Sequence record: MH243438.1
Strand: one strand, 5' to 3'
Source of the DNA: Escherichia phage vB_EcoM_NBG1
Length of the DNA: 64,000 nt
Part shown: positions 9,287 to 42,728 of the stretch, piece by piece
Numbering within the stretch: the first letter of the stretch is position 1
Layout of the letters: each line of letters starts with the position of its first letter
The notes under the pieces: generated by a model
Told to the model about the DNA's origin: nothing
The model's input: the letters and a program-made list of their open reading frames with translations, nothing else
The model's database searches: none
Translations under genes and position numbers: made by a program

Positions 9287-9556
9287 CTATCGGAGCAAAC
9301 AATAAGCCTGAAACACTTTTTCCATTAAACGTTTGAACTCATGGATATCGATATAAAGCTCAGTAAGACCGGCATTATAAAGAAAATCTAAAAAGTTCTC
9401 ATGTGTTTCGTTATAGTCGCCTTCGTTTAATTGAGATACATGAGTTTCCCAAAAACCAACACCTTTAACGAATGGAAAATACGTGACTTTCATGTATTCG
9501 TCAACATAAAATTCGCCCAGCTTTTCTTCAGTTATACTGATTCGAGTTAATTTCAT
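9287..9556 (-). CDS. hypothetical protein
   Basis: 89-aa ORF. Confidence 0.45.
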   Translation of the reverse strand: MKLTRISITEEKLGEFYVDEYMKVTYFPFVKGVGFWETHVSQLNEGDYNETHENFLDFLYNAGLTELYIDIHEFKRLMEKVFQAYCLLR

Positions 9557-9780
9557 TCTAGTTCCTTTGCTGCTTCAAGAGCAGCATCCAGCGAATCAAA
9601 TTGGTCAACGAAATCAATATTCAACGCATCGTCAACCGTAGCATATAACCACCATTGTTTGAATTCGTATTCTAGAATAAATCCAGGACCTTCAATCTGA
9701 GGAAGACCTAGACTATTTGTACCAACTTCGTAACCAGCTAGACGCAGGTCATTAATCAAAGTTTCTGTTAATACGCTCAT
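9553..9780 (-). CDS. hypothetical protein
   Basis: 75-aa acidic ORF, 4-nt overlap with neighbour. Confidence 0.45.
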   Translation of the reverse strand: MSVLTETLINDLRLAGYEVGTNSLGLPQIEGPGFILEYEFKQWWLYATVDDALNIDFVDQFDSLDAALEAAKELE

Positions 9781-10109
9781 TTTACCGCCTTAACAATTTT
9801 AAGGTCAACGAATTTTTTCTTACGTTGATTTTTCATACGACGGATAGTCTTTTCAGAGATTTCATGTTTCTGATAAGCTTTAGATTCAACACCAAATGCA
9901 GCAACGTCAAATTCAGAAAGAATATATTGTACTAGAATTTCACGAATAGAATTACGTCCAATTTTCTGGTCGTGTTTTTGCATGATTTCATAAAGACGGA
10001 ATTCCCACGCATCAAGAACTTGAGGAGTAACAATATTGCCAGATTCCAGAAGAGCAACAACTTTATCGAAAGCGAAAGAATTAACTACGTTTTTGATTTT
10101 AGTAGACAT
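9777..10109 (-). CDS. hypothetical protein
   Basis: Start reassigned to MSTKIKNVV (10109) because promoter cassette lies inside the longer track ORF; GAGGA Shine-Dalgarno upstream. Confidence 0.5.
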   Translation of the reverse strand: MSTKIKNVVNSFAFDKVVALLESGNIVTPQVLDAWEFRLYEIMQKHDQKIGRNSIREILVQYILSEFDVAAFGVESKAYQKHEISEKTIRRMKNQRKKKFVDLKIVKAVK

Positions 10110-32828: not shown

Positions 32829-33089
32829 TTAAGCTTTACCGCCAGAAATAATTCCGAAGTTGTTAAAATCGTATCCAGTATCGTCAACATCCACTTTAGG
32901 ACTTGCTACAACATAAGCAATTTCACTACGTTTTGCATAGGTGTTGATTTCTTTACCATCGCCACCTAAGAAAGAATACCCATTACGTTTTAATGAGCCA
33001 AAGTCTTCGGCATCACCAATGAAAGCTTTAACTTTAAATTTAGGACATTTGGCATCTGCTTCAATGATAAATTCTTGATACATTTTCAT
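32829..33089 (-). CDS. Internal-protein-like protein
   Basis: Starts MKMYQEFIIE. Confidence 0.55.
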   Translation of the reverse strand: MKMYQEFIIEADAKCPKFKVKAFIGDAEDFGSLKRNGYSFLGGDGKEINTYAKRSEIAYVVASPKVDVDDTGYDFNNFGIISGGKA

Positions 33090-33567: not shown

Positions 33568-33849
33568 CTATTTTTCTGAAGCGCCTGAAATATATTTTTC
33601 AAGACGTTGTTTCATTAGCGAGCCGTTCTTAGCGATTTCTTCTGGTTTATCGCACATACGCAACAAGGCTTCAAGCTTAGCGATATCGCTGGTACGTTCA
33701 AATTTGCGAGTATCTATCTTACTAGCAAGTTCAGAAATACGTGCTAATAGACTTTCGGCTTCAACCAAAGCTGCACCTAACTTAGTTGCAAATGTGTCAG
33801 TAGCTTCATTAAGAATAGATTCTGATAAAAATTCACTATATGTTTTCAT
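33568..33849 (-). CDS. Internal-protein-like protein
   Basis: Starts [10 protein letters not shown] at internal Met of track ORF. Confidence 0.55.
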
Positions 33850-34334
33850 ATATACGCTTTCCAAGTTCCTGTTTTAAATGTTGAGATTACGCGTTTCGCG
33901 CGATTAGGTGTCTGACGATACCATTTAGATTGGGCTAGATTTACTGCCGCTTCATCCCAACGTTTCTGTTGAAGCATACGAAGAGAATTAGTAAAACCGG
34001 CGACGCCTGCTACGCCCATTTGGAAGACCATATTGACCAATGCACATCGACGAACCGCATCTAAAGAATCATATACCGGTTTAAGTTTAGCATTACCCAA
34101 GATTCCGCGAACGGCTTTATCAACGTCTTCATTAAATAGCTTTTCAGCCTCATCAAGGGTAATTGTACCGTTGCATTTACGACCGATCATTCTGTCAAGT
34201 TCAGCTTTAGCTACGGCTAAAGACGGGTTCTTTGTTACTAAATGGCCTATGCCAATCGTCCAAAAGCCTTCAGTGTCTTTGTATAAAGTCAGTCTAAGAC
34301 CTTCGTCATTACGAAGCATTTCAAATATATTCAT
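33846..34334 (-). CDS. e: Lysozyme (endolysin) e
   Basis: [32 protein letters not shown]... near-identical to T4 lysozyme. Confidence 0.9.
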
Positions 34335-34827: not shown

Positions 34828-35068
34828 CTCGGTCCCATGATTTGGCCATTAATTCGGACATAAATTCTTCAATGCGCGTTTCTTTAGATGGACTTTCACT
34901 ATTAGAGACCGCAAGTTTGTAATCTGCAATAGGACAGAACATATCAAGGTCCATATTAAGGTCGTCTTTGATTTTTTCTTCTGACACATCTTTATCGTAT
35001 GTGTACAGATAACTATCACATGATTCTGATTTAATGTAAATTGCTATACTCATCTCAAATTCCTGCAT
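34817..35068 (-). CDS. hypothetical protein
   Basis: 83-aa acidic ORF. Confidence 0.45.
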   Translation of the reverse strand: MQEFEMSIAIYIKSESCDSYLYTYDKDVSEEKIKDDLNMDLDMFCPIADYKLAVSNSESPSKETRIEEFMSELMAKSWDRDDE

Positions 35069-35541
35069 TCGGTAATAAAACGTTCAACTTCATTATTCTT
35101 GGCCTTTATCTTGTCTTTACGTTCCTGTAAACTACTTTTAACAAGATTAATAATGATGCCTACAGTACCGCCGCCAATGATGCCGCCAACAACACTTATG
35201 ATAATAGATGCTAATAAGATAGCAATAATATCAACAAAACCGAAAGAACTCACCTTAGTACTAAAAAACCATACCGACGGTACAAATATAATCCATCCTG
35301 TTATCCATTGGCACTTATTGAAAAACTTTTCAAGCTCAGCTTGAGTTGTTCGTATTACTTCATCGATAGGTTGATATCCATTAATGTATCTGTTCACGAT
35401 AATACCTGCTGGCTGGTCGATTTTAAATTCTTGGCAAATATGTTTCACTAAGTAGGATGGACATCCTGTCCAATCTACTGAATAGTATGAAATACCTTCG
35501 TTGCCATCGTCTATATTAGACCAATATGTTTTGTTAATCAT
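35050..35541 (-). CDS. membrane protein with C-terminal FITECR tail
   Basis: 163 aa, two hydrophobic helices, ends ...EVERFITECRNLR. Confidence 0.5.
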   Translation of the reverse strand: MINKTYWSNIDDGNEGISYYSVDWTGCPSYLVKHICQEFKIDQPAGIIVNRYINGYQPIDEVIRTTQAELEKFFNKCQWITGWIIFVPSVWFFSTKVSSFGFVDIIAILLASIIISVVGGIIGGGTVGIIINLVKSSLQERKDKIKAKNNEVERFITECRNLR

Positions 35542-36227
35542 TACCAGCCTTCCATAGGGAATTCCAGATAAACTTGAGCATTGACACGAATTTCATTGGT
35601 AATCTTTTTAACTCGGTCTGTATTACGAGATACACGTCCGAACCAACGCCATCCGTTACTAATTGCACGAGAACCAGTGTGCCATGTTTGCCAATCAAAC
35701 TGAAGAAGAGTACGATCTGGAGCTTCCCATTTCTCTAGTTCACCTTTTTCAATTTTTTCGAGGACTTCTTTGTGCCACTGGCGATAGATAAGTTCGCCAT
35801 CAGGAATCTGACTGAACTCTGCAGTTCCTGTTGCAAAATGAGTAGGACACACGTCAGCGTTAACAAGACCAAGAATATGTTCAGAATGGTAACGAGGGTT
35901 GTCATAGTCAGGTTGTCCTGCAGTAATAAAGTGTTGACCAACTGGAATATCAGGGCGAGGAACATCATCATGGTGGTATCCAGGAATAGCAGGATACCAA
36001 CCAGGCATCAGCATATGAACCCGAGAATCAAATACAACATGTTGATTAGTCCAATCAATTGGGAGATTGGCAATAAAGCTACGAGTGATTGAGCCACCAT
36101 TATCCCAAGCAAAACCCAAATCACAATTAAAGAACATTGGTTCATTTTTGATTCGGTCATTTTGTACGTTATGTGCAAAACTACCAACTGCACGAGCTTG
36201 ACTATTAAAAGTTTTAGAACTATTCAT
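35541..36227 (-). CDS. hypothetical protein (228 aa, His/Trp-rich)
   Basis: No recognised motif. Confidence 0.5.
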   Translation of the reverse strand: MNSSKTFNSQARAVGSFAHNVQNDRIKNEPMFFNCDLGFAWDNGGSITRSFIANLPIDWTNQHVVFDSRVHMLMPGWYPAIPGYHHDDVPRPDIPVGQHFITAGQPDYDNPRYHSEHILGLVNADVCPTHFATGTAEFSQIPDGELIYRQWHKEVLEKIEKGELEKWEAPDRTLLQFDWQTWHTGSRAISNGWRWFGRVSRNTDRVKKITNEIRVNAQVYLEFPMEGW

Positions 36228-36228
36228 A

Positions 36229-36534
36229 TTATTTTCCTCGACATTCTTTAATGAAATTTTCTAGATTGGTAGATTCAATAGCTTTTTTACGAGCTTCTGC
36301 ATGTTCTTCTTCAGACAATTTACATTTATAATTAACCCAGACATTATGGTCGAAACTAGTCGTGGCATATAATAACAATGCTCCAACGAATAGCAAAAAC
36401 GGCGATAAGAATACAAAACCAGGAACACCATCCATATCGTAAGCCTTTTGTAATACTGCAACAGAAAGAGCTGCGTAAAAAGGTGATGCAAATATTGTTA
36501 AAAGACCAATTCGGTTGGTTTCGCCTAATTTCAT
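36229..36534 (-). CDS. membrane protein with C-terminal FIKECR tail
   Basis: 101 aa, two TM helices, ends ...NLENFIKECRGK. Confidence 0.5.
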   Translation of the reverse strand: MKLGETNRIGLLTIFASPFYAALSVAVLQKAYDMDGVPGFVFLSPFLLFVGALLLYATTSFDHNVWVNYKCKLSEEEHAEARKKAIESTNLENFIKECRGK

Positions 36535-36592
36535 AATATTCTCCTCATGTTTTAATAGGACTACTATAATATATCCCTATCAGTTTGTACAC

Positions 36593-36811
36593 TTATTTTG
36601 ACATTTCTTCGATGTCACGACGATACCCATCACGAACTTCACGAAGAGCTTCAAGGCCACACATAGGCTCGATACCAGTAATGTGAACTTGATTAATCTG
36701 ATACTCTACATCTTCTAACTGAGCGAAAACATAACGACGTTCTGCTGCACAACCGGGTTTAGCTTTACCGAAACGTTTATTCAAAGTAGTCATTTTTATA
36801 TCTCCATTCAC
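36593..36811 (-). CDS. hypothetical protein
   Basis: 72-aa ORF. Confidence 0.45.
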   Translation of the reverse strand: MNGDIKMTTLNKRFGKAKPGCAAERRYVFAQLEDVEYQINQVHITGIEPMCGLEALREVRDGYRRDIEEMSK

Positions 36812-36873
36812 TCATTTGTTTTGATAGGTCTATAGTATCAACAACTACAGACCTTGTAAACTGTTTTGTGAAA

Positions 36874-37830
36874 TTATTTGAAAGGTTTTACCATATGAAA
36901 GTTTTGTTTGAAACGCTTGACGTAATCGTCGTGTCCTAAGCTTTGGTACATACTTACTACTTTGCTATAATTTTCCCAAGCGAACTCACGGAACCATCCT
37001 GATGTGATTGATGTACAGACCTTTTCAAGGGCCATCATAAAACTATCACGTGGATGGATTTTAAAGTCGTTAGGAATCTGTGAACGTTCAAGAGCTAATA
37101 CACAAGCTTCTTCATATACACCGGCTAATTTAACCATTTCTGGTAATGATTTGAACTTCTCGCGTGATGTCATAACTTCTGAGCCTTCTTTCATATAAAA
37201 CTTATAAGCAGGCTGGTCAGTTAGTGCAATGGCTTCATGAATAGTATCATGGTCATATGTATAGATGTCATCTTTAAAGAACGCACTTTTAGAAGTGTCA
37301 AGAACTGGGTGAGCATAATTCAAGGTTTCTTTCTGGCGTTTCAGCATAATTTCAGTAAGTTCATCGTTCAGTGTAACACCTTTACCACGAAGATACTGAA
37401 TATGATTCATAGTCTTTAAAAAGAATGGATTATTTTTCTTGAAACGATGAGACATCTTAATTGCAAGACATATCTCGGGAGTTGCCCAGTAAAACCCGTT
37501 CAAACGGTCTTTAGTCAAATTTTTCTTGGCGTATTTTAAAAGGTCATAAGAAGACGTGAAATCTTCAGGAGTGAGTTCACCAACTAATTCACGGACATTA
37601 GTGATTGCCGGAACAATATATGCTTCAAAATGAGTTTCGCGTCCATTATGGAAGCATTTGAAAACTTGGACGTCAGGGTTATCTTGGTGAACGTATACAC
37701 CCATCATTTGATTTTTGAATGCATTCCAAGAACATTGGTCCGCAATAAAATCCCAATCACTATTTTTGATAGCGCTAGAATCAATAAGACCATGATAGTG
37801 AAGTGCACGAGAACCAATAACTAACATCAT
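36874..37830 (-). CDS. hypothetical protein (318 aa)
   Basis: N-terminal GSRALHYHG...DWDF loosely nucleotidyltransferase-like; not convincing. Confidence 0.5.
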   Translation of the reverse strand: MMLVIGSRALHYHGLIDSSAIKNSDWDFIADQCSWNAFKNQMMGVYVHQDNPDVQVFKCFHNGRETHFEAYIVPAITNVRELVGELTPEDFTSSYDLLKYAKKNLTKDRLNGFYWATPEICLAIKMSHRFKKNNPFFLKTMNHIQYLRGKGVTLNDELTEIMLKRQKETLNYAHPVLDTSKSAFFKDDIYTYDHDTIHEAIALTDQPAYKFYMKEGSEVMTSREKFKSLPEMVKLAGVYEEACVLALERSQIPNDFKIHPRDSFMMALEKVCTSITSGWFREFAWENYSKVVSMYQSLGHDDYVKRFKQNFHMVKPFK

Positions 37831-37855
37831 AATAATTTCCTCGAATTTAGATTAC

Positions 37856-38107
37856 TTAAATTTCACGACATGCGATATTATATTCATCCCAGAGGTCATC
37901 ATGTGAAGCCTCTACCAATGGAACGATTGTACCGTTTATGTCTTCATTATAAGGGCAAATTGTACAGTGCGCATCTTCGAATCGGATGCCTTTGTGTTCA
38001 GATTTTTTATAACGCATATCGAATATCTTTGCAAACTTTTCACGAGTAATAGTTTTAGCAACCACTTTGGTTCCGATACTTTCGTAATAAATCATTGTGG
38101 ACTCCAT
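37856..38107 (-). CDS. hypothetical protein
   Basis: 83-aa ORF. Confidence 0.45.
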   Translation of the reverse strand: MESTMIYYESIGTKVVAKTITREKFAKIFDMRYKKSEHKGIRFEDAHCTICPYNEDINGTIVPLVEASHDDLWDEYNIACREI

Positions 38108-38157
38108 TTGTTTTGATAGGACTACTATAACATAGCCCTATCTTGTTGTAAACTGTT

Positions 38158-38355
38158 TTAGCAAGAATAACTAGATGATACCCAGCCTTGAACAGTGATA
38201 CTATTGTGGGATAATGAGATCGCGTCCTGGAGATTCAGACCTGCGTTATCTTCAATCCATAATGTAACTTCTTCGCGTTCTTCTGTTGCAATTTGGAACA
38301 GGTTTTCCAGAGCAGCTACTGCCGTACGTACAGCACAATCTAATTCACGAGACAT
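38158..38355 (-). CDS. small protein, GxWVSSSxxC family member A
   Basis: 65 aa ending QGWVSSSYSC. Confidence 0.5.
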   Translation of the reverse strand: MSRELDCAVRTAVAALENLFQIATEEREEVTLWIEDNAGLNLQDAISLSHNSITVQGWVSSSYSC

Positions 38356-38364
38356 ATTGTTTCC

Positions 38365-38637
38365 TTAGCAAGTGTGAGAAGATGCGACCCAACCACCAGT
38401 TTCGAGGCTCAGGTTGTAGTCGTATTGGTAAACGTCAGCCCATTCAGCATAGCCGTTTTTTGTACAACGTTCAAGATCGGCTTTAAGATGTCCGGGTGAA
38501 TGATAGGTTCCACCCATACCATAAGCTGGATACAAGTCGAATGTTGTGTTTTGTTTATCAGCAATTTCTTTGGCAGCCTCAATAGCTGCATAGATTTTTG
38601 CTACAGCTTCAGCCAGTTCGGTTTGTTCTTTAGACAT
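38365..38637 (-). CDS. small protein, GxWVSSSxxC family member B
   Basis: 90 aa ending GGWVASSHTC. Confidence 0.5.
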   Translation of the reverse strand: MSKEQTELAEAVAKIYAAIEAAKEIADKQNTTFDLYPAYGMGGTYHSPGHLKADLERCTKNGYAEWADVYQYDYNLSLETGGWVASSHTC

Positions 38638-38646
38638 AATGATTCC

Positions 38647-38952
38647 TTAGCACAACGCAGAAGACGAAACCCAAGCACCTTCAGTAATAACGTAACCGTT
38701 ACCTTCACGCTTAACATCGCCACCATTATTTTCAATTTCATCTTTCATCCACTGGGATACGATTTCACCCTTAGGATAATAAGTACGACCACTACCATAA
38801 TCACCTACAGAAAATGATACAGCATATTGGTCTGCGATCTTTGTTGCTTCTTCTTCGATACGTTCAGCTTGATTCAGAAGTTTATAAATTGCATCTGAAG
38901 CGGATTTGGCATCATTAAACTCTGGTACTTTAATTTCAATAATCTTACTCAT
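38647..38952 (-). CDS. small protein, GxWVSSSxxC family member C
   Basis: 101 aa ending GAWVSSSALC. Confidence 0.5.
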   Translation of the reverse strand: MSKIIEIKVPEFNDAKSASDAIYKLLNQAERIEEEATKIADQYAVSFSVGDYGSGRTYYPKGEIVSQWMKDEIENNGGDVKREGNGYVITEGAWVSSSALC

Positions 38953-39308
38953 TTTCTACATTCCTTAATAAAGTTTTCGATTGTTTCATTTTCACGTTTA
39001 GCTAGGAGTTCATTATAACTAATCATTTGAGAAGCGTAAACCTTTTTATTTTTCTTGTTATGGTTTATAAAATCGTAGTAAAAATAGACCACAGTACAAA
39101 ATGATGCGATGGATGCAAAGGCTTGGGTATACCGTAAGTCCTGCCATTGGTCTGTGAATCCACCGGTATTCCCTATAAATCCTAACACAACTCCGTCAAT
39201 AAGAAATCCAACTAATCCAAAGGCAAATCCCATGCCAATACTCATAATAAAAATTAGAATGTTCTCGCCGAGAGAAGGCCGAACAGTTAAGAGTTTAGGT
39301 TTTTGCAT
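38949..39308 (-). CDS. membrane protein with C-terminal FIKECR tail
   Basis: 119 aa, ends ...ETIENFIKECRK. Confidence 0.5.
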   Translation of the reverse strand: MQKPKLLTVRPSLGENILIFIMSIGMGFAFGLVGFLIDGVVLGFIGNTGGFTDQWQDLRYTQAFASIASFCTVVYFYYDFINHNKKNKKVYASQMISYNELLAKRENETIENFIKECRK

Positions 39309-39712
39309 CTTATTTCCTTAACGAATTCCATAGCTTCTTCGTATTCGTACTTTTTAACAGCTTCGTCATACTGAGCTTGGGCTTTTGCGCACTGAACTTT
39401 CCATTCGCGTACTCGAGCTCTATAATGACGTCCTTGGTACCAATATCCCACCCAGTTAATAGGCATTAATAAAAATGGCACAATAAACGACCCGGCTATA
39501 ATAAGTAAAAACACTGCATCAGACGATATAACTTCACTAGAATCTAAAACAGCTCCTATAATCATAAAGATTAAAAATGCTAAAGCTAAAATAGGGCCAA
39601 ATAGTACTTCGTTTGGGATTAATTTACGTTTGTATTCGTATGCCCAGGGCTTAATTGGTTGATAAAGGGTTGGCTTTGACATATTCTCTACATTCCATAA
39701 TAAATTGCTCAA
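39287..39712 (-). CDS. membrane protein with FVKEIRC tail variant
   Basis: 141 aa (or 131 from MSKPTLY), ends ...EEAMEFVKEIRCKNLNS. Confidence 0.5.
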   Translation of the reverse strand: MSNLLWNVENMSKPTLYQPIKPWAYEYKRKLIPNEVLFGPILALAFLIFMIIGAVLDSSEVISSDAVFLLIIAGSFIVPFLLMPINWVGYWYQGRHYRARVREWKVQCAKAQAQYDEAVKKYEYEEAMEFVKEIRCKNLNS

Positions 39713-40253
39713 GGATTAAATTGTTAGTGAAATTAGGACTAACAACCATAGTTTCATAAAGCGCATCAATAGCACTTAAAGCATCAACTCTCTTAAGCAA
39801 AGGCTTGCCTTCATACATAGTTTCAGAATCGACGATTAAAGTGAAGTAGTATTTTTTATTATTGACCAGAACTTCTGTATCAATATAAAACATGTTAGAC
39901 CTCAGAAGCTTATCTCTAAAACCATAATAATCTTTAGAGCGTTCGCTGATATATTCCCATTCAGTGTTTAAACAACAAACAGACCATGTAGGAGCAACGA
40001 AATCGGTGAATCTAATATCATGGTCTGCAACTAGTTTAGCAATAGCTCCGATATCATGAATCATAATACCTGGGGTTAATAAAGATTTTCTGCTATGGCT
40101 AGCCGTTTTCTCAGTAGTCTCATAAGAAGACGACCAGTACCATTTACGTCCAGTTGCAACATATCGTAATGAATCAACTAAAGACGTAGGTGGATTTACC
40201 TTATCTCGGAACTCTTCGAACATTGAGTCAATATCATTATTTTGGTTTCGCAT
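39651..40253 (-). CDS. hypothetical protein with FIMECR near C-terminus
   Basis: Start reassigned to MRNQNNDIDSMFEEF (AAGGAG upstream); ends ...LEQFIMECREYVKANPLSTN. Confidence 0.5.
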   Translation of the reverse strand: MRNQNNDIDSMFEEFRDKVNPPTSLVDSLRYVATGRKWYWSSSYETTEKTASHSRKSLLTPGIMIHDIGAIAKLVADHDIRFTDFVAPTWSVCCLNTEWEYISERSKDYYGFRDKLLRSNMFYIDTEVLVNNKKYYFTLIVDSETMYEGKPLLKRVDALSAIDALYETMVVSPNFTNNLILEQFIMECREYVKANPLSTN

Positions 40254-40272: not shown

Positions 40273-40294
40273 AAAAGGAGGACCGGAGTCCTCC
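40273..40294 (-). terminator. Hairpin terminator after gene 40303-40896
   Basis: GGAGGAC-CGGA-GTCCTCC with T-rich tracts on both sides. Confidence 0.5.
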
Positions 40295-40302
40295 GTATTA
40301 TT

Positions 40303-40896
40303 TTATTTCAAAGAGTTAATATATTCTTGTACATCAGCAGAAGTGGTTTCGACACCAGCTGGAGTGCCATTGAACGTTTCAACACGAGTCAGAGTGTCTT
40401 CGATATCAACCTTAGTCAGTGCAGCGATTTCAATTACATCATCAGCCGTAGAGATACCAAGGGCATTGGCTGCTCGAGTTTCACGAATGTATTCGAGTTT
40501 GATTGCCAGATTCTGACGAGCATCATCAAGTTCAACCACCTTACGAGCAATTTCAATTCGCATAGCGGCATACCCGTCAGCTTTTGTATTAAGTTGTTCG
40601 GCAGTTCGACGATACAGAAGACCAAGCTTAGCATGCATAGTAACATCTTGTCCTTCAGCCAGGAGCTTACGAATTTCACGTTCCTTAGAAGCGGCTTGCT
40701 TGTTCTTTTCATTAACAAGTTCGCGAATACGTTTTTCTTCATTAATAGATTTAACAGAAGCCGTTTTTAGTTCTTTGATTTGGGTAATCAACTTATCTGC
40801 AGCTGCGTTATACTGTTCTTCGACAGTCAGATTTTTAGCCATAGCAGTACCCAGTTTAGTGCGGATGAATTCAACAAGTTTCTTCAGTGTGTTCAT
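40303..40896 (-). CDS. coiled-coil protein
   Basis: 197 aa from [14 protein letters not shown] (track uses upstream TTG). Confidence 0.5.
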
Positions 40897-42571: not shown

Positions 42572-42648
42572 TGGCCGAGACAGAAGGATTCTAACCTTCA
42601 ACCTACGGATTAGAATTCCGTTGCTCTATACAATTGAGCTATGCCTCG
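42572..42648 (-). tRNA. tRNA-Arg (anticodon UCU)
   Basis: 77-nt cloverleaf folded by hand with 7-bp acceptor stem, GCTC/GAGC D-stem, anticodon loop AUUCUAA, T-arm GAAGG-TTAGAAT-CCTTC, encoded CCA. Confidence 0.7.
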
Positions 42649-42654
42649 AATATA

Positions 42655-42728
42655 TGACCCAGACCAGATTCGAACTGGTAACCTTTCCCTTATGAGGGGA
42701 CTGCTGCTAACCATTGAGCTACAGGGCC
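42655..42728 (-). tRNA. tRNA with CAU anticodon (Met or Ile2 type)
   Basis: 74 nt, anticodon loop CUCAUAA, T-arm ACCAG-TTCGAAT-CTGGT; one acceptor mismatch and unclear D-stem in my reading. Confidence 0.6.

Follow-up and report, generated by a model that had tools for sequence, protein, structure and literature searches.

In this study we analysed a stretch of 64,000 nucleotides from Escherichia phage vB_EcoM_NBG1 (record MH243438.1; hereafter the window), in which five co-oriented genes between 35050 and 40253 had been noticed, from the letters of the DNA alone, to end in almost the same peptide. Our findings show that this C-terminal tail is a portable tag which is carried by unrelated membrane and soluble proteins and is widespread in T4-like phages, and that it is under selection as protein and not as DNA. 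The motif was found in every one of the more than 35 T4-like loci examined, each time beside e.6, a gene for which profile comparisons and a structural model lead us to conclude that it probably encodes a divergent homologue of PspA/IM30/Vipp1. The best reading of the tails is that they share a common interaction partner, for which the product of e.6 is the leading, still tentative, candidate.

The tail motif in the window

The window resembles Mosigvirus (RB69-like, T4-type) coliphages with 98% identity, and all genes at 33–42 kb lie on its minus strand. The five carrier genes, here G1 to G5 (Table 1), are homologues of T4 e.2, e.3, e.4 and e.5 and one extra gene, G2 (cluster C11), which among the loci examined is restricted to those of Mosigvirus. 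Identity to the T4 counterparts is 30–52% for the e.2–e.5 homologues and 88% for e.6. G1 matches phrog_2203 and shares 30% identity with T4 e.2 in the N-terminal domain; G3 is 36% identical to T4 e.3, the tail of which reads KEFVIDCRKIK.

A six-frame translation of the window contains the pattern E.FI.ECR at exactly four places, in comparison to 0 expected matches (none in 100 shuffles). All four matches, in G1, G2, G3 and G5, are located 1–11 residues before the stop codon, in open reading frames (ORFs) of 115–218 codons from stop to stop. A hidden Markov model (HMM) of the tail assigns 15.7–21.7 bits to these four and 4.0 bits to the next best ORF of the window. Thus, the nearly identical ends described in the sequence-only reading for five genes are real for four of them, whereas G4 has only a degenerate FVKEIRC (MEFVKEIRCKNLNS). 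Although MEFVKEIRCKNLNS lacks the motif Cys, we count it as genuinely related, since the ends of e.4 homologues in other genera are FIKEVRNGTA or FLKEIRK. Tails of the e.4 family read FVKE[IS]RCK, FIKEVRNGTA and FLKE[IM]RK, with I, S, V or M at the Cys position, and the tail of T4 e.4 scores merely 3.5 bits with the tail HMM. All five genes lie on the minus strand at the positions first given, except that the start of G4 is most likely the ATG at 39682 (131 amino acids) instead of 39712.

Hydrophobic hairpins are present in G1 to G4, in agreement with the earlier assignment of four members as membrane proteins with two to three predicted transmembrane (TM) segments. G5 has no hydrophobic segment and is therefore predicted to be soluble. 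In G1 the hydrophobic block spans residues 94–134 and is followed by a tail with nine K+R and five D+E.

Anatomy of the motif and its carriers

For a broader view, 34 loci were taken from IMG/VR with e.6 as anchor (e.6 identity 55–100%), and loci of T4, a Dhakavirus, a Kanagawavirus, an Aeromonas phage and a Pseudotevenvirus were added. These loci gave a sample of 110 distinct proteins with 83 distinct nucleotide versions of the tail; 91 distinct tails were aligned. Other collecting routes were a scan with an e.4 alignment, which led to six loci, and a first protein search with e.5, which led to four proteins.

In the aligned tails the core consists of a hydrophobic residue at −3, E/N/D at −2, F at position 0, I/V at +1, C at +4 and R/K at +5, followed by 0–15 further residues. 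Positions −3 (L/I/F/V, 2.4 bits) and −2 (2.0 bits) are conserved although neither was part of the search pattern. The two glutamates of the original consensus do not belong to the core: E at +3 is present in 37 of the 91 tails and was not found in many genera, and the real core is hydrophobic-[E/N/D]-x-F-[I/V]-x-x-C-[R/K]. The hydrophobic residues at −3, 0, +1 and +4 would lie on one face of a helix, and in an AlphaFold2 model of G5 of low confidence (mean predicted local distance difference test score, pLDDT, 53) residues 179–194 are helical. The Cys is replaced by V in the tails FIKNVRRK and FITYVKK.

When the tails are trimmed, the 110 carriers fall into about 18 clusters that are unrelated by BLAST; 66 of them contain hydrophobic segments and are predicted membrane proteins, while 44 contain none and are predicted to be soluble. 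The carriers of the window likewise resemble each other in the tail only. The description of the carriers as a single family of small membrane proteins is therefore abandoned. The most widely conserved carrier is the soluble e.5 type (154–316 amino acids), encoded directly after e.6; its two sequence clusters are homologous also with the tails removed (hhalign probability 93%, E=3.6e-7). Proteins of the e.2 type consist of an N-terminal domain, a 2-TM hairpin and the tail, those of the e.3 and e.4 types have two TM segments, and further carriers are many other small 2-TM and small soluble proteins. In the membrane carriers the last TM segment and the motif are typically 16–41 residues apart, and in nearly all of them K+R exceed D+E in the tail (8–13 versus 2–9). 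The tails had been described as charged and cytoplasmic; we likewise place them in the cytoplasm because they are rich in K/R (positive-inside rule), and the presence of the same motif on soluble proteins fits this location.

As a check that is independent of the tail, HMMs were built from the same carriers without their tails, and the ends of the matching proteins were inspected. The motif was present in 35 of 38 homologues of the e.5 type, 22 of 23 of the e.2 type and 16 of 16 of the e.3 type. The four exceptions are shortened ORFs, and in three of them the tail survives as a separate ORF. In an alignment of 13 e.5-type proteins with 14–21% identity to G5, only N96, F184 and C188 are invariant and R189 is nearly so. 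With F184, C188 and R189 among the four best columns, the tail is the best-conserved part of the e.5 family.

G1–G5 have no match in Pfam or NCBIfam and belong to five separate PHROGs, four of unknown function and one, that of the e.2 type, described only as ‘membrane protein’. In the T4 reference record e.2–e.6 are hypothetical with no function given, and PHROGs lists e.3–e.6 as unknown. Sequence records carry the labels ‘host specificity protein’ for e.6 (many GenBank and UniRef entries), ‘sulfurtransferase’ (apparently e.4) and ‘phosphoserine phosphatase’ for e.5 (some records). The labels on e.4 and e.5 are without any support here, and for e.6 the evidence points instead to a PspA/Vipp1-like protein. 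A rhodanese-like CRxGxR loop, suggested by the Kanagawavirus tail CRNGRRS together with the ‘sulfurtransferase’ labels, was rejected since most tails stop 1–3 residues past C-R.

Occurrence beside e.6

Every e.6-anchored locus that reaches past e.6 encodes two to five carriers just downstream, ending in F-[IV]-x-x-C-[RK] plus 0–15 residues. In the whole of T4, the pattern F[IVL]xxC[RK] near the ends of ORFs of at least 45 codons on the early-gene strand occurs only in e.5, e.3 and the remnant of e.2, and the only other match near a stop codon lies in an unannotated plus-strand ORF. In the 64-kb window the motif is confined to the cluster described here. From both scans we conclude that the motif marks the gene block from e.6 to nudE.

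T4 e.2 as annotated (102 amino acids) is truncated in comparison to the 162-amino-acid e.2 of other Tequatroviruses. Its lost 3′ part, with the tail ...NLNNFITECRKLK, is found in an unannotated out-of-frame ORF of 53 codons in the ‘gap’ before nudE. A frameshift, a pseudogene or a problem with the sequencing could account for the split; in phage mobillu the e.2 homologue is likewise annotated as two genes.

Selection on the protein

The sequence-only reading had held that the tail codons differ synonymously and that conservation is at the protein level. The former is correct in the window and is upheld in the much larger sample of 83 nucleotide versions, and the latter is borne out by the codon use at the invariant residues. 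Codons for F (TTT 57, TTC 26) and for I (ATT 43, ATC 15, ATA 9) are used at the background frequency of the rest of the same genes, those for C are used almost equally (TGT 43, TGC 40), and all six Arg codons occur (CGN 43, AGR 35). Among the latter AGG is enriched, with 17 of 78 Arg codons (about 22%) versus a background of 7%. The two middle x-x positions are filled by more than 20 residue pairs.

As had been noted, the tails overlap the translation start region of the next gene, yet the distance varies: from the Arg codon to the next ATG it is 1–128 nucleotides (nt), with a median of 8. Where the next ATG is 1–2 nt away, the x-x codons read AAGGA or AAAGGA (K-E, K-G), and where it is 7–10 nt away, the Arg codon is AGG, AGA-GG or CGA-GG. 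Since the x-x codons match the Shine-Dalgarno sequence of the next gene, part of the original ‘E-C-R’ consensus is a Shine-Dalgarno sequence in variable positions. In cluster C6 the motif is kept although an intergenic promoter comes next. Due to the synonymous codon variation, the variable x-x pairs and the variable distance to the ATG, the tails are not copies of one identical DNA cassette. What remains of a constraint on the DNA is secondary, a dual coding that affects the x-x positions and which Arg codon is used.

e.6 as a putative PspA/IM30/Vipp1 relative

The gene directly upstream of the carriers, e.6, had been overlooked in the sequence-only reading. Searches with the single window sequence gave no Pfam match (PF04012 none even at E≤1) and no PDB match. 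In the AlphaFold2 model of e.6, calculated with 30 homologues, a helix at the N-terminus is predicted, followed by a long hairpin of helices (pLDDT ~90) and, at the C-terminus, short helices; this corresponds to the PspA/ESCRT-III fold with its N-terminal helix, long alpha1-alpha2/3 hairpin and shorter C-terminal helices. In a Foldseek search of the PDB with this model, the top eight matches were all Vipp1 (best E=3e-4); PspA and CdvB2, an ESCRT-III protein of archaea, came next.

The comparison of sequence profiles leads to the same group of proteins. An exhaustive HMMER search of 1.84 billion representative proteins recovered 45 e.6 relatives only, all of about 200 amino acids. A profile of 36 sequences of the e.6 family, compared with the PDB sequences, gave Vipp1/PspA as the top eight matches (E=7e-5 to 9e-4). 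The alignment is colinear, with positions 1–146 on 1–147, and E. coli PspA (4whe) was matched with E=0.41. PspA_IM30 (PF04012) is the Pfam family with the most matching members (5 of the 36), and its cut-off of 33.9 bits is passed by two of the 36, P0081 with 39.0 and P0075 with 35.1 bits. Both were found by the e.6 profile at E=8e-17 and 3e-20, respectively, and share phrog_1203 with e.6.

The PHROGs entry of the e.6 family gives its function as unknown; e.6 is present in more than 1,100 phage records. A literature search brought up no paper on the motif or on a T4-type PspA homologue, although such a paper may exist, and a large survey of phage shock protein (PSP) systems (PMC11237479) does not use the word ‘virus’.

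Y192 is one of the five most conserved residues of e.6, and the C-terminus of e.6 has a tail-like hydrophobic spacing. A copy of the motif at its C-terminus (…EYINSLK) or its N-terminus (…LVEFIRTK) is unsupported by the tail HMM. We treat a mimicry of the e.6 C-terminus by the tails as a lead only, because the tail profile misses that segment.

Concerted change in distant clades

The contigs of P0081 and P0075 are T4-like, with genes for UvsX and the gp41 helicase as well. On these contigs, and likewise at another three distant e.6-like loci, the PspA-like gene is flanked by genes that end in a predicted helix of the same kind made of other residues, I-[ILV]-x-x-[A/S]-[R/K], as in ESILARAR, DSIIKHAR, KTIIARAK and DEIVTKAR; the further tails are ESILANAR, KAIVHRAR, EHIIEQAR, DSIIEHSK, EMIINEAR and MEKYIHRCKK. 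A loosened pattern matches 9 of 82 ORFs near an e.6-like gene versus 2 of 299 elsewhere. Of about 600 ORFs of T4 and the window that are not members, none matches. Applied to Tevenvirinae-type loci, this pattern finds 79 tails of the form F..C, one F..A and one I..A. The identity of the motif residues thus changes in concert between clades, across unrelated carriers, as expected if the tails fit one co-evolving receptor. The replacement of Cys by A, S or V makes a small packing residue likelier than a metal or redox site.

A proposed common partner for the tails

We propose that the tail is a cytoplasmic amphipathic docking helix that ties its carriers to one partner, most likely e.6. We hold this as the leading explanation, with a probability that falls slightly short of even. 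As a short and portable docking motif, the helix would tie otherwise unrelated early proteins, namely the 2-TM e.2, e.3, e.4 and G2 types and the soluble e.5 type, to the same partner. The membrane carriers may recruit or organise an e.6 polymer at the cytoplasmic face of the host inner membrane, and the helix may sit in a helix-binding site of the e.6 hairpin, like the one that receives alpha5 in Vipp1/ESCRT-III polymers. We speculate that the role would be to preserve an intact inner membrane and proton-motive force while the infection proceeds, or to reshape the membrane. The docking of the helix, e.6 as its partner and the physiological role, that is the stabilising or reshaping of the inner membrane in infection, are what we infer here.

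A broader proposal appears to us possible but on balance doubtful: T4-like phages would own an ESCRT-III/PspA-type module, in which e.6 and changeable adaptors (e.2–e.5 and others), plugged in by the shared helix, hold or reshape the host inner membrane. Such a module could serve, for example, to maintain the proton-motive force through DNA entry, superinfection or lysis inhibition, or to blunt membrane-depolarising host defences.

Several points weigh against e.6 as the partner. The link between the tails and e.6 consists of gene neighbourhood and analogy, and their co-occurrence is partly built in, because most loci were collected through e.6. At the most distant e.6-like locus (L051) the two downstream genes are without the motif; the contig ends there. 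The tails match no Pfam model of PspC, PspB or SHOCT, and the e.5 model is too poor (pLDDT 53) to tell a free tail from a packed one. Furthermore, in phage RB49, of which 140 of 164 kb were scanned (all but 24 kb of late genes), there was no e.6 homologue and no F-I-x-x-C-R tail, but I-[IV]-x-[DE]-A-R is present close to the C-termini of two paralogues that are encoded side by side next to the holin gene. Hence the loosened motif may occur without e.6, and RB49 as a negative control is ambiguous.

The competitor to which we give the most credence, while considering it rather improbable, is a docking helix for another partner, such as a host membrane protease or a division or secretion component, or else tails that bundle with one another. 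A motif that is selected as protein and changes in concert between clades fits any single receptor, the two to five carriers per genome would suit a helical bundle, and the tie between motif and e.6 is one of gene neighbourhood. On the other hand, a host partner leaves the switch from F..C to I..A/S between phage clades unexplained unless the hosts differ in step, and mutual bundling gives no reason why the motif stays beside the PspA-like gene. For any partner other than e.6 it has to be considered that e.6 is the one neighbour in every carrier locus examined, though most of these were collected through e.6.

We regard it as improbable that the tail is an in-plane membrane-binding amphipathic helix in the manner of MinD/FtsA or SHOCT, which would anchor soluble carriers to the inner leaflet or sense its state. 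Such a role has been predicted for SHOCT-like modules in PSP neighbourhoods (PMC11237479), the amphipathic pattern with flanking K/R would agree with it, and soluble carriers might need an anchor. However, targeting helices keep their amphipathicity and not their identity, whereas here F, C and R are near-invariant across unrelated families; moreover, the tail has just four hydrophobic positions, and 60% of the carriers are already integral membrane proteins.

A nascent-peptide signal for arrest or coupling in the manner of SecM, MifM or VemP, which would adjust the translation of the following gene to membrane insertion, or a C-terminal degron or protease site such as the gp21 site (L/I)-x-E, is very improbable. 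The motif does always lie close to the stop codon and shortly before the start of the next gene, and the 16–41-residue linker between TM segment and motif corresponds to the range of force-sensing arrest peptides. Arrest peptides belong to secreted or membrane proteins and have their motif at a constant distance from the downstream start that they regulate, whereas here the stop codon follows after 0–15 codons, the next ATG after 1–128 nt, and 44 of the 110 carriers are soluble; nor would a clustering beside one particular gene be expected of arrest or degron signals. For a protease site speaks that the window tails contain I-x-E and that a neighbouring internal-protein gene begins with MKMYQEFIIE. 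The capsid-targeting sequence of T4 is an N-terminal leader of the MKTYQEFIAE type with an (L/I)-x-E cleavage site. A gp21 site or capsid-targeting sequence (EFIxE) was rejected for the tails, since just 37 of 91 have E at +3 and the tail is C-terminal while the targeting sequence is N-terminal. We judge the superficial likeness of the leader EFIxE to the tail to be a coincidence, since E is not a conserved residue of the tails.

To a chemically active Cys, acting as metal ligand or in a disulfide or persulfide between tails or with the neighbouring GxWVSSSxxC proteins (see below), we likewise give very little weight. This Cys is invariant in the Tevenvirinae-type tails, there by construction of the search, and independently so in the e.5 alignment, and the GxWVSSSxxC proteins themselves end in Cys. 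Nevertheless, e.4-type tails have V, I, S or M in its place and the distant clade has A or S there throughout, and the tails are predicted to lie in the cytoplasm, a reducing compartment. The translated e.2–e.5 region of T4 (the rest of T4 was not scanned for this) encodes no GxWVSSSxxC protein and yet bears the motif, so that these proteins, which had been named as candidate partners, are unlikely as a general partner as well.

A repeated DNA cassette at the gene junctions, either a translation-initiation region or a recombination junction, might be suspected from the close spacing to the next start, from Shine-Dalgarno sequences often formed by the K-E/K-G or Arg codons with their enriched AGG and from the promoter-hairpin cassettes of the region, but it is effectively refuted as the main cause by codon usage (free third positions at invariant residues, Arg swaps between CGN and AGR), the variable spacing, the more than 20 x-x pairs and the motif kept before the intergenic promoter in C6.

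Comparison with known PspA systems

Should e.6 be the partner of the tails, the closest parallel would be PspA with PspB and PspC of proteobacteria. According to PMC5596341, PspC's cytoplasmic C-terminal domain binds PspA, and an entry in the reference list of the same paper describes Yersinia PspC as polytopic. Common to both systems is a PspA/IM30 coiled-coil gene beside small inner-membrane proteins, in the phage as 2-TM neighbours with predicted cytoplasmic C-terminal helices. In contrast to PspB/PspC, the phage system has a 9–10-residue peptide that is common to about 18 unrelated proteins, soluble ones included; it is phage-encoded, lies among early-promoter-like sites and is without a PspF-like regulator. 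G1–G4 gave no match to Pfam PspC or PspB at E≤0.1 and no NCBIfam match.

In Bacillus subtilis LiaI is the anchor of the PspA homologue LiaH, and here, too, a small membrane protein and a PspA homologue share one gene cluster. We know of no shared terminal peptide for LiaI. PMC11237479 names LiaI as a PSP partner and describes the LiaI-LiaF-TM domain with four TM segments, in comparison to the 2-TM hairpin of the phage carriers; no homology was detected between them.

As a short terminal element on many proteins, the tail can also be compared with SHOCT, a bi-helical module of about 28 residues and thus longer than the single predicted helix of 9–10 residues with near-invariant F, C and R in the phages. 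SHOCT-like modules are described in PMC11237479 as short, helical and terminal, on disparate proteins and enriched near PspA systems; the prediction made there is that they place these activities at the membrane's inner face and connect them with the PSP system. The carriers gave no match to Pfam SHOCT.

A short amphipathic helix as docking element is known from ESCRT-III, where the MIM helices are docking peptides at the extreme C-terminus. In Vipp1/ESCRT-III, alpha5 docks in trans on the hairpin tip of a neighbour (Interface 1), as set out in PMC8281802. Different from ESCRT-III, the phage cluster showed neither an MIT-domain protein nor a Vps4-like ATPase.

Further features of the gene cluster

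The coordinates of all features are collected in Table 1. The last 11 codons of G5 overlap the start of G4. The hairpin between e.6 and G5 could serve as a terminator or to stabilise the RNA. Downstream of this hairpin, e.5, e.4, e.3 and three WVSSS genes (40253–38158) are tightly packed, overlapping or abutting. The products of these three genes end in G-x-W-V-[SA]-S-S-x-x-C and form a second, unrelated C-terminal motif family in the cluster. The Dhakavirus and Kanagawavirus loci contain four to five genes of this type, with the variants WQPSSC and WYSSSMQNC.

Three near-identical intergenic cassettes contain a T4-early-type promoter (GTTTACA ... TATAGT) that overlaps a hairpin, e.g. tagggctatgttatagtagtcctatc, and a similar cassette follows a motif-bearing gene in L036/L038. 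They resemble the cassettes of promoter and stem-loop by which genes of T4-type phages have been proposed to be shuffled. The 318-amino-acid DUF7277/DUF7275 protein is conserved, the loci of the Dhakavirus and the Kanagawavirus having it in this cluster too. The phrog_1843 protein is very strongly conserved, the Aeromonas Ceceduovirus included, with the C-terminus ...NEIRVNAQVYLEFPMEGW in both; in that phage its gene lies immediately upstream of the e.6 homologue. The protein is another constant companion of e.6.

Table 1 Features of the tail gene cluster and related loci. Positions refer to the window unless another record is named.
Feature	Position	Strand	Remarks
G1, T4 e.2 type, 163 aa	35050..35541	-	soluble N-terminal domain, hydrophobic hairpin, tail ...NNEVERFITECRNLR
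Motif ERFITECR of G1	35062..35085	-	pattern match; tail HMM 17.5 bits
G2, 101 aa, 2-TM, phrog_9798	36229..36534	-	ends ...NLENFIKECRGK
Motif ENFIKECR of G2	36238..36261	-	pattern match; tail HMM 21.7 bits
G3, T4 e.3 homologue, 119 aa, membrane protein	38949..39308	-	ends ...TIENFIKECRK
Motif ENFIKECR of G3	38955..38978	-	pattern match; tail HMM 18.9 bits
G4, T4 e.4 homologue, 131 aa, 2 TM	39287..39682	-	degenerate tail ...AMEFVKEIRCKNLNS; 52% identity to T4 e.4
Variant motif FVKEIR of G4, Ile replacing Cys	39308..39325	-	read from sequence
G5, T4 e.5 homologue, 200 aa, soluble	39651..40253	-	ends ...LILEQFIMECREYVKANPLSTN; 48% identity to T4 e.5
Motif EQFIMECR of G5	39687..39710	-	pattern match; tail HMM 15.7 bits
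Terminator-like GC-rich hairpin (7 bp), then TTTT	40277..40294	-	between e.6 stop and G5 start
e.6 homologue, 197 aa, putatively PspA/IM30/Vipp1-like, proposed tail partner	40303..40896	-	AlphaFold2 model, Foldseek, family profile
Three tandem GxWVSSSxxC genes	38158-38355, 38365-38637, 38647-38952	-	phrog_899, phrog_4882
Promoter-hairpin cassettes	38107-38160, 36812-36870, 36535-36600	-	upstream of genes starting 38107, 36811, 36534
318-aa protein	36874-37830	-	Pfam DUF7277 (E=1e-27), DUF7275 (2e-78)
228-aa protein, phrog_1843	35541-36227; L046 8247-8933	- (window)	strong conservation
Two internal-head-protein-like genes	32829-33089, 33568-33864	-	N-terminal leader, e.g. MKMYQEFIIEA
tRNA-Arg(tct), tRNA-Met(cat)	42572-42648, 42655-42728	-	position of T4 tRNA cluster
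T4 e.2 remnant region	L001 ~9500-9961 = NC_000866 ~67430-67960	minus	ORF reading
RB49p256 + RB49p257	L063 41809-42579 = RB49 record 155908-156678		end ...KIIDEARIMTENIFGKF and ...DIVKDARKLAENVYGKF

Conclusion

T4 is the best-studied virulent phage, and its e.2–e.8 block is still without an assigned function. Following the tag led to what appears, from profile and model comparisons, to be a previously unrecognised PspA/Vipp1 homologue in T4 itself. If the proposed reading is true, the conserved early gene e.6 would be a viral member of the PspA/Vipp1/ESCRT-III superfamily, and the adjacent small membrane proteins would be its adaptors, identifiable by a ten-residue tag. This would offer a small model system for the recruitment of PspA-type polymers by membrane partners and a plain sequence criterion by which dozens of ‘hypothetical’ families of phage proteins could be annotated, and it would provide a handle on how lytic phages manage the integrity of the inner membrane of their host.

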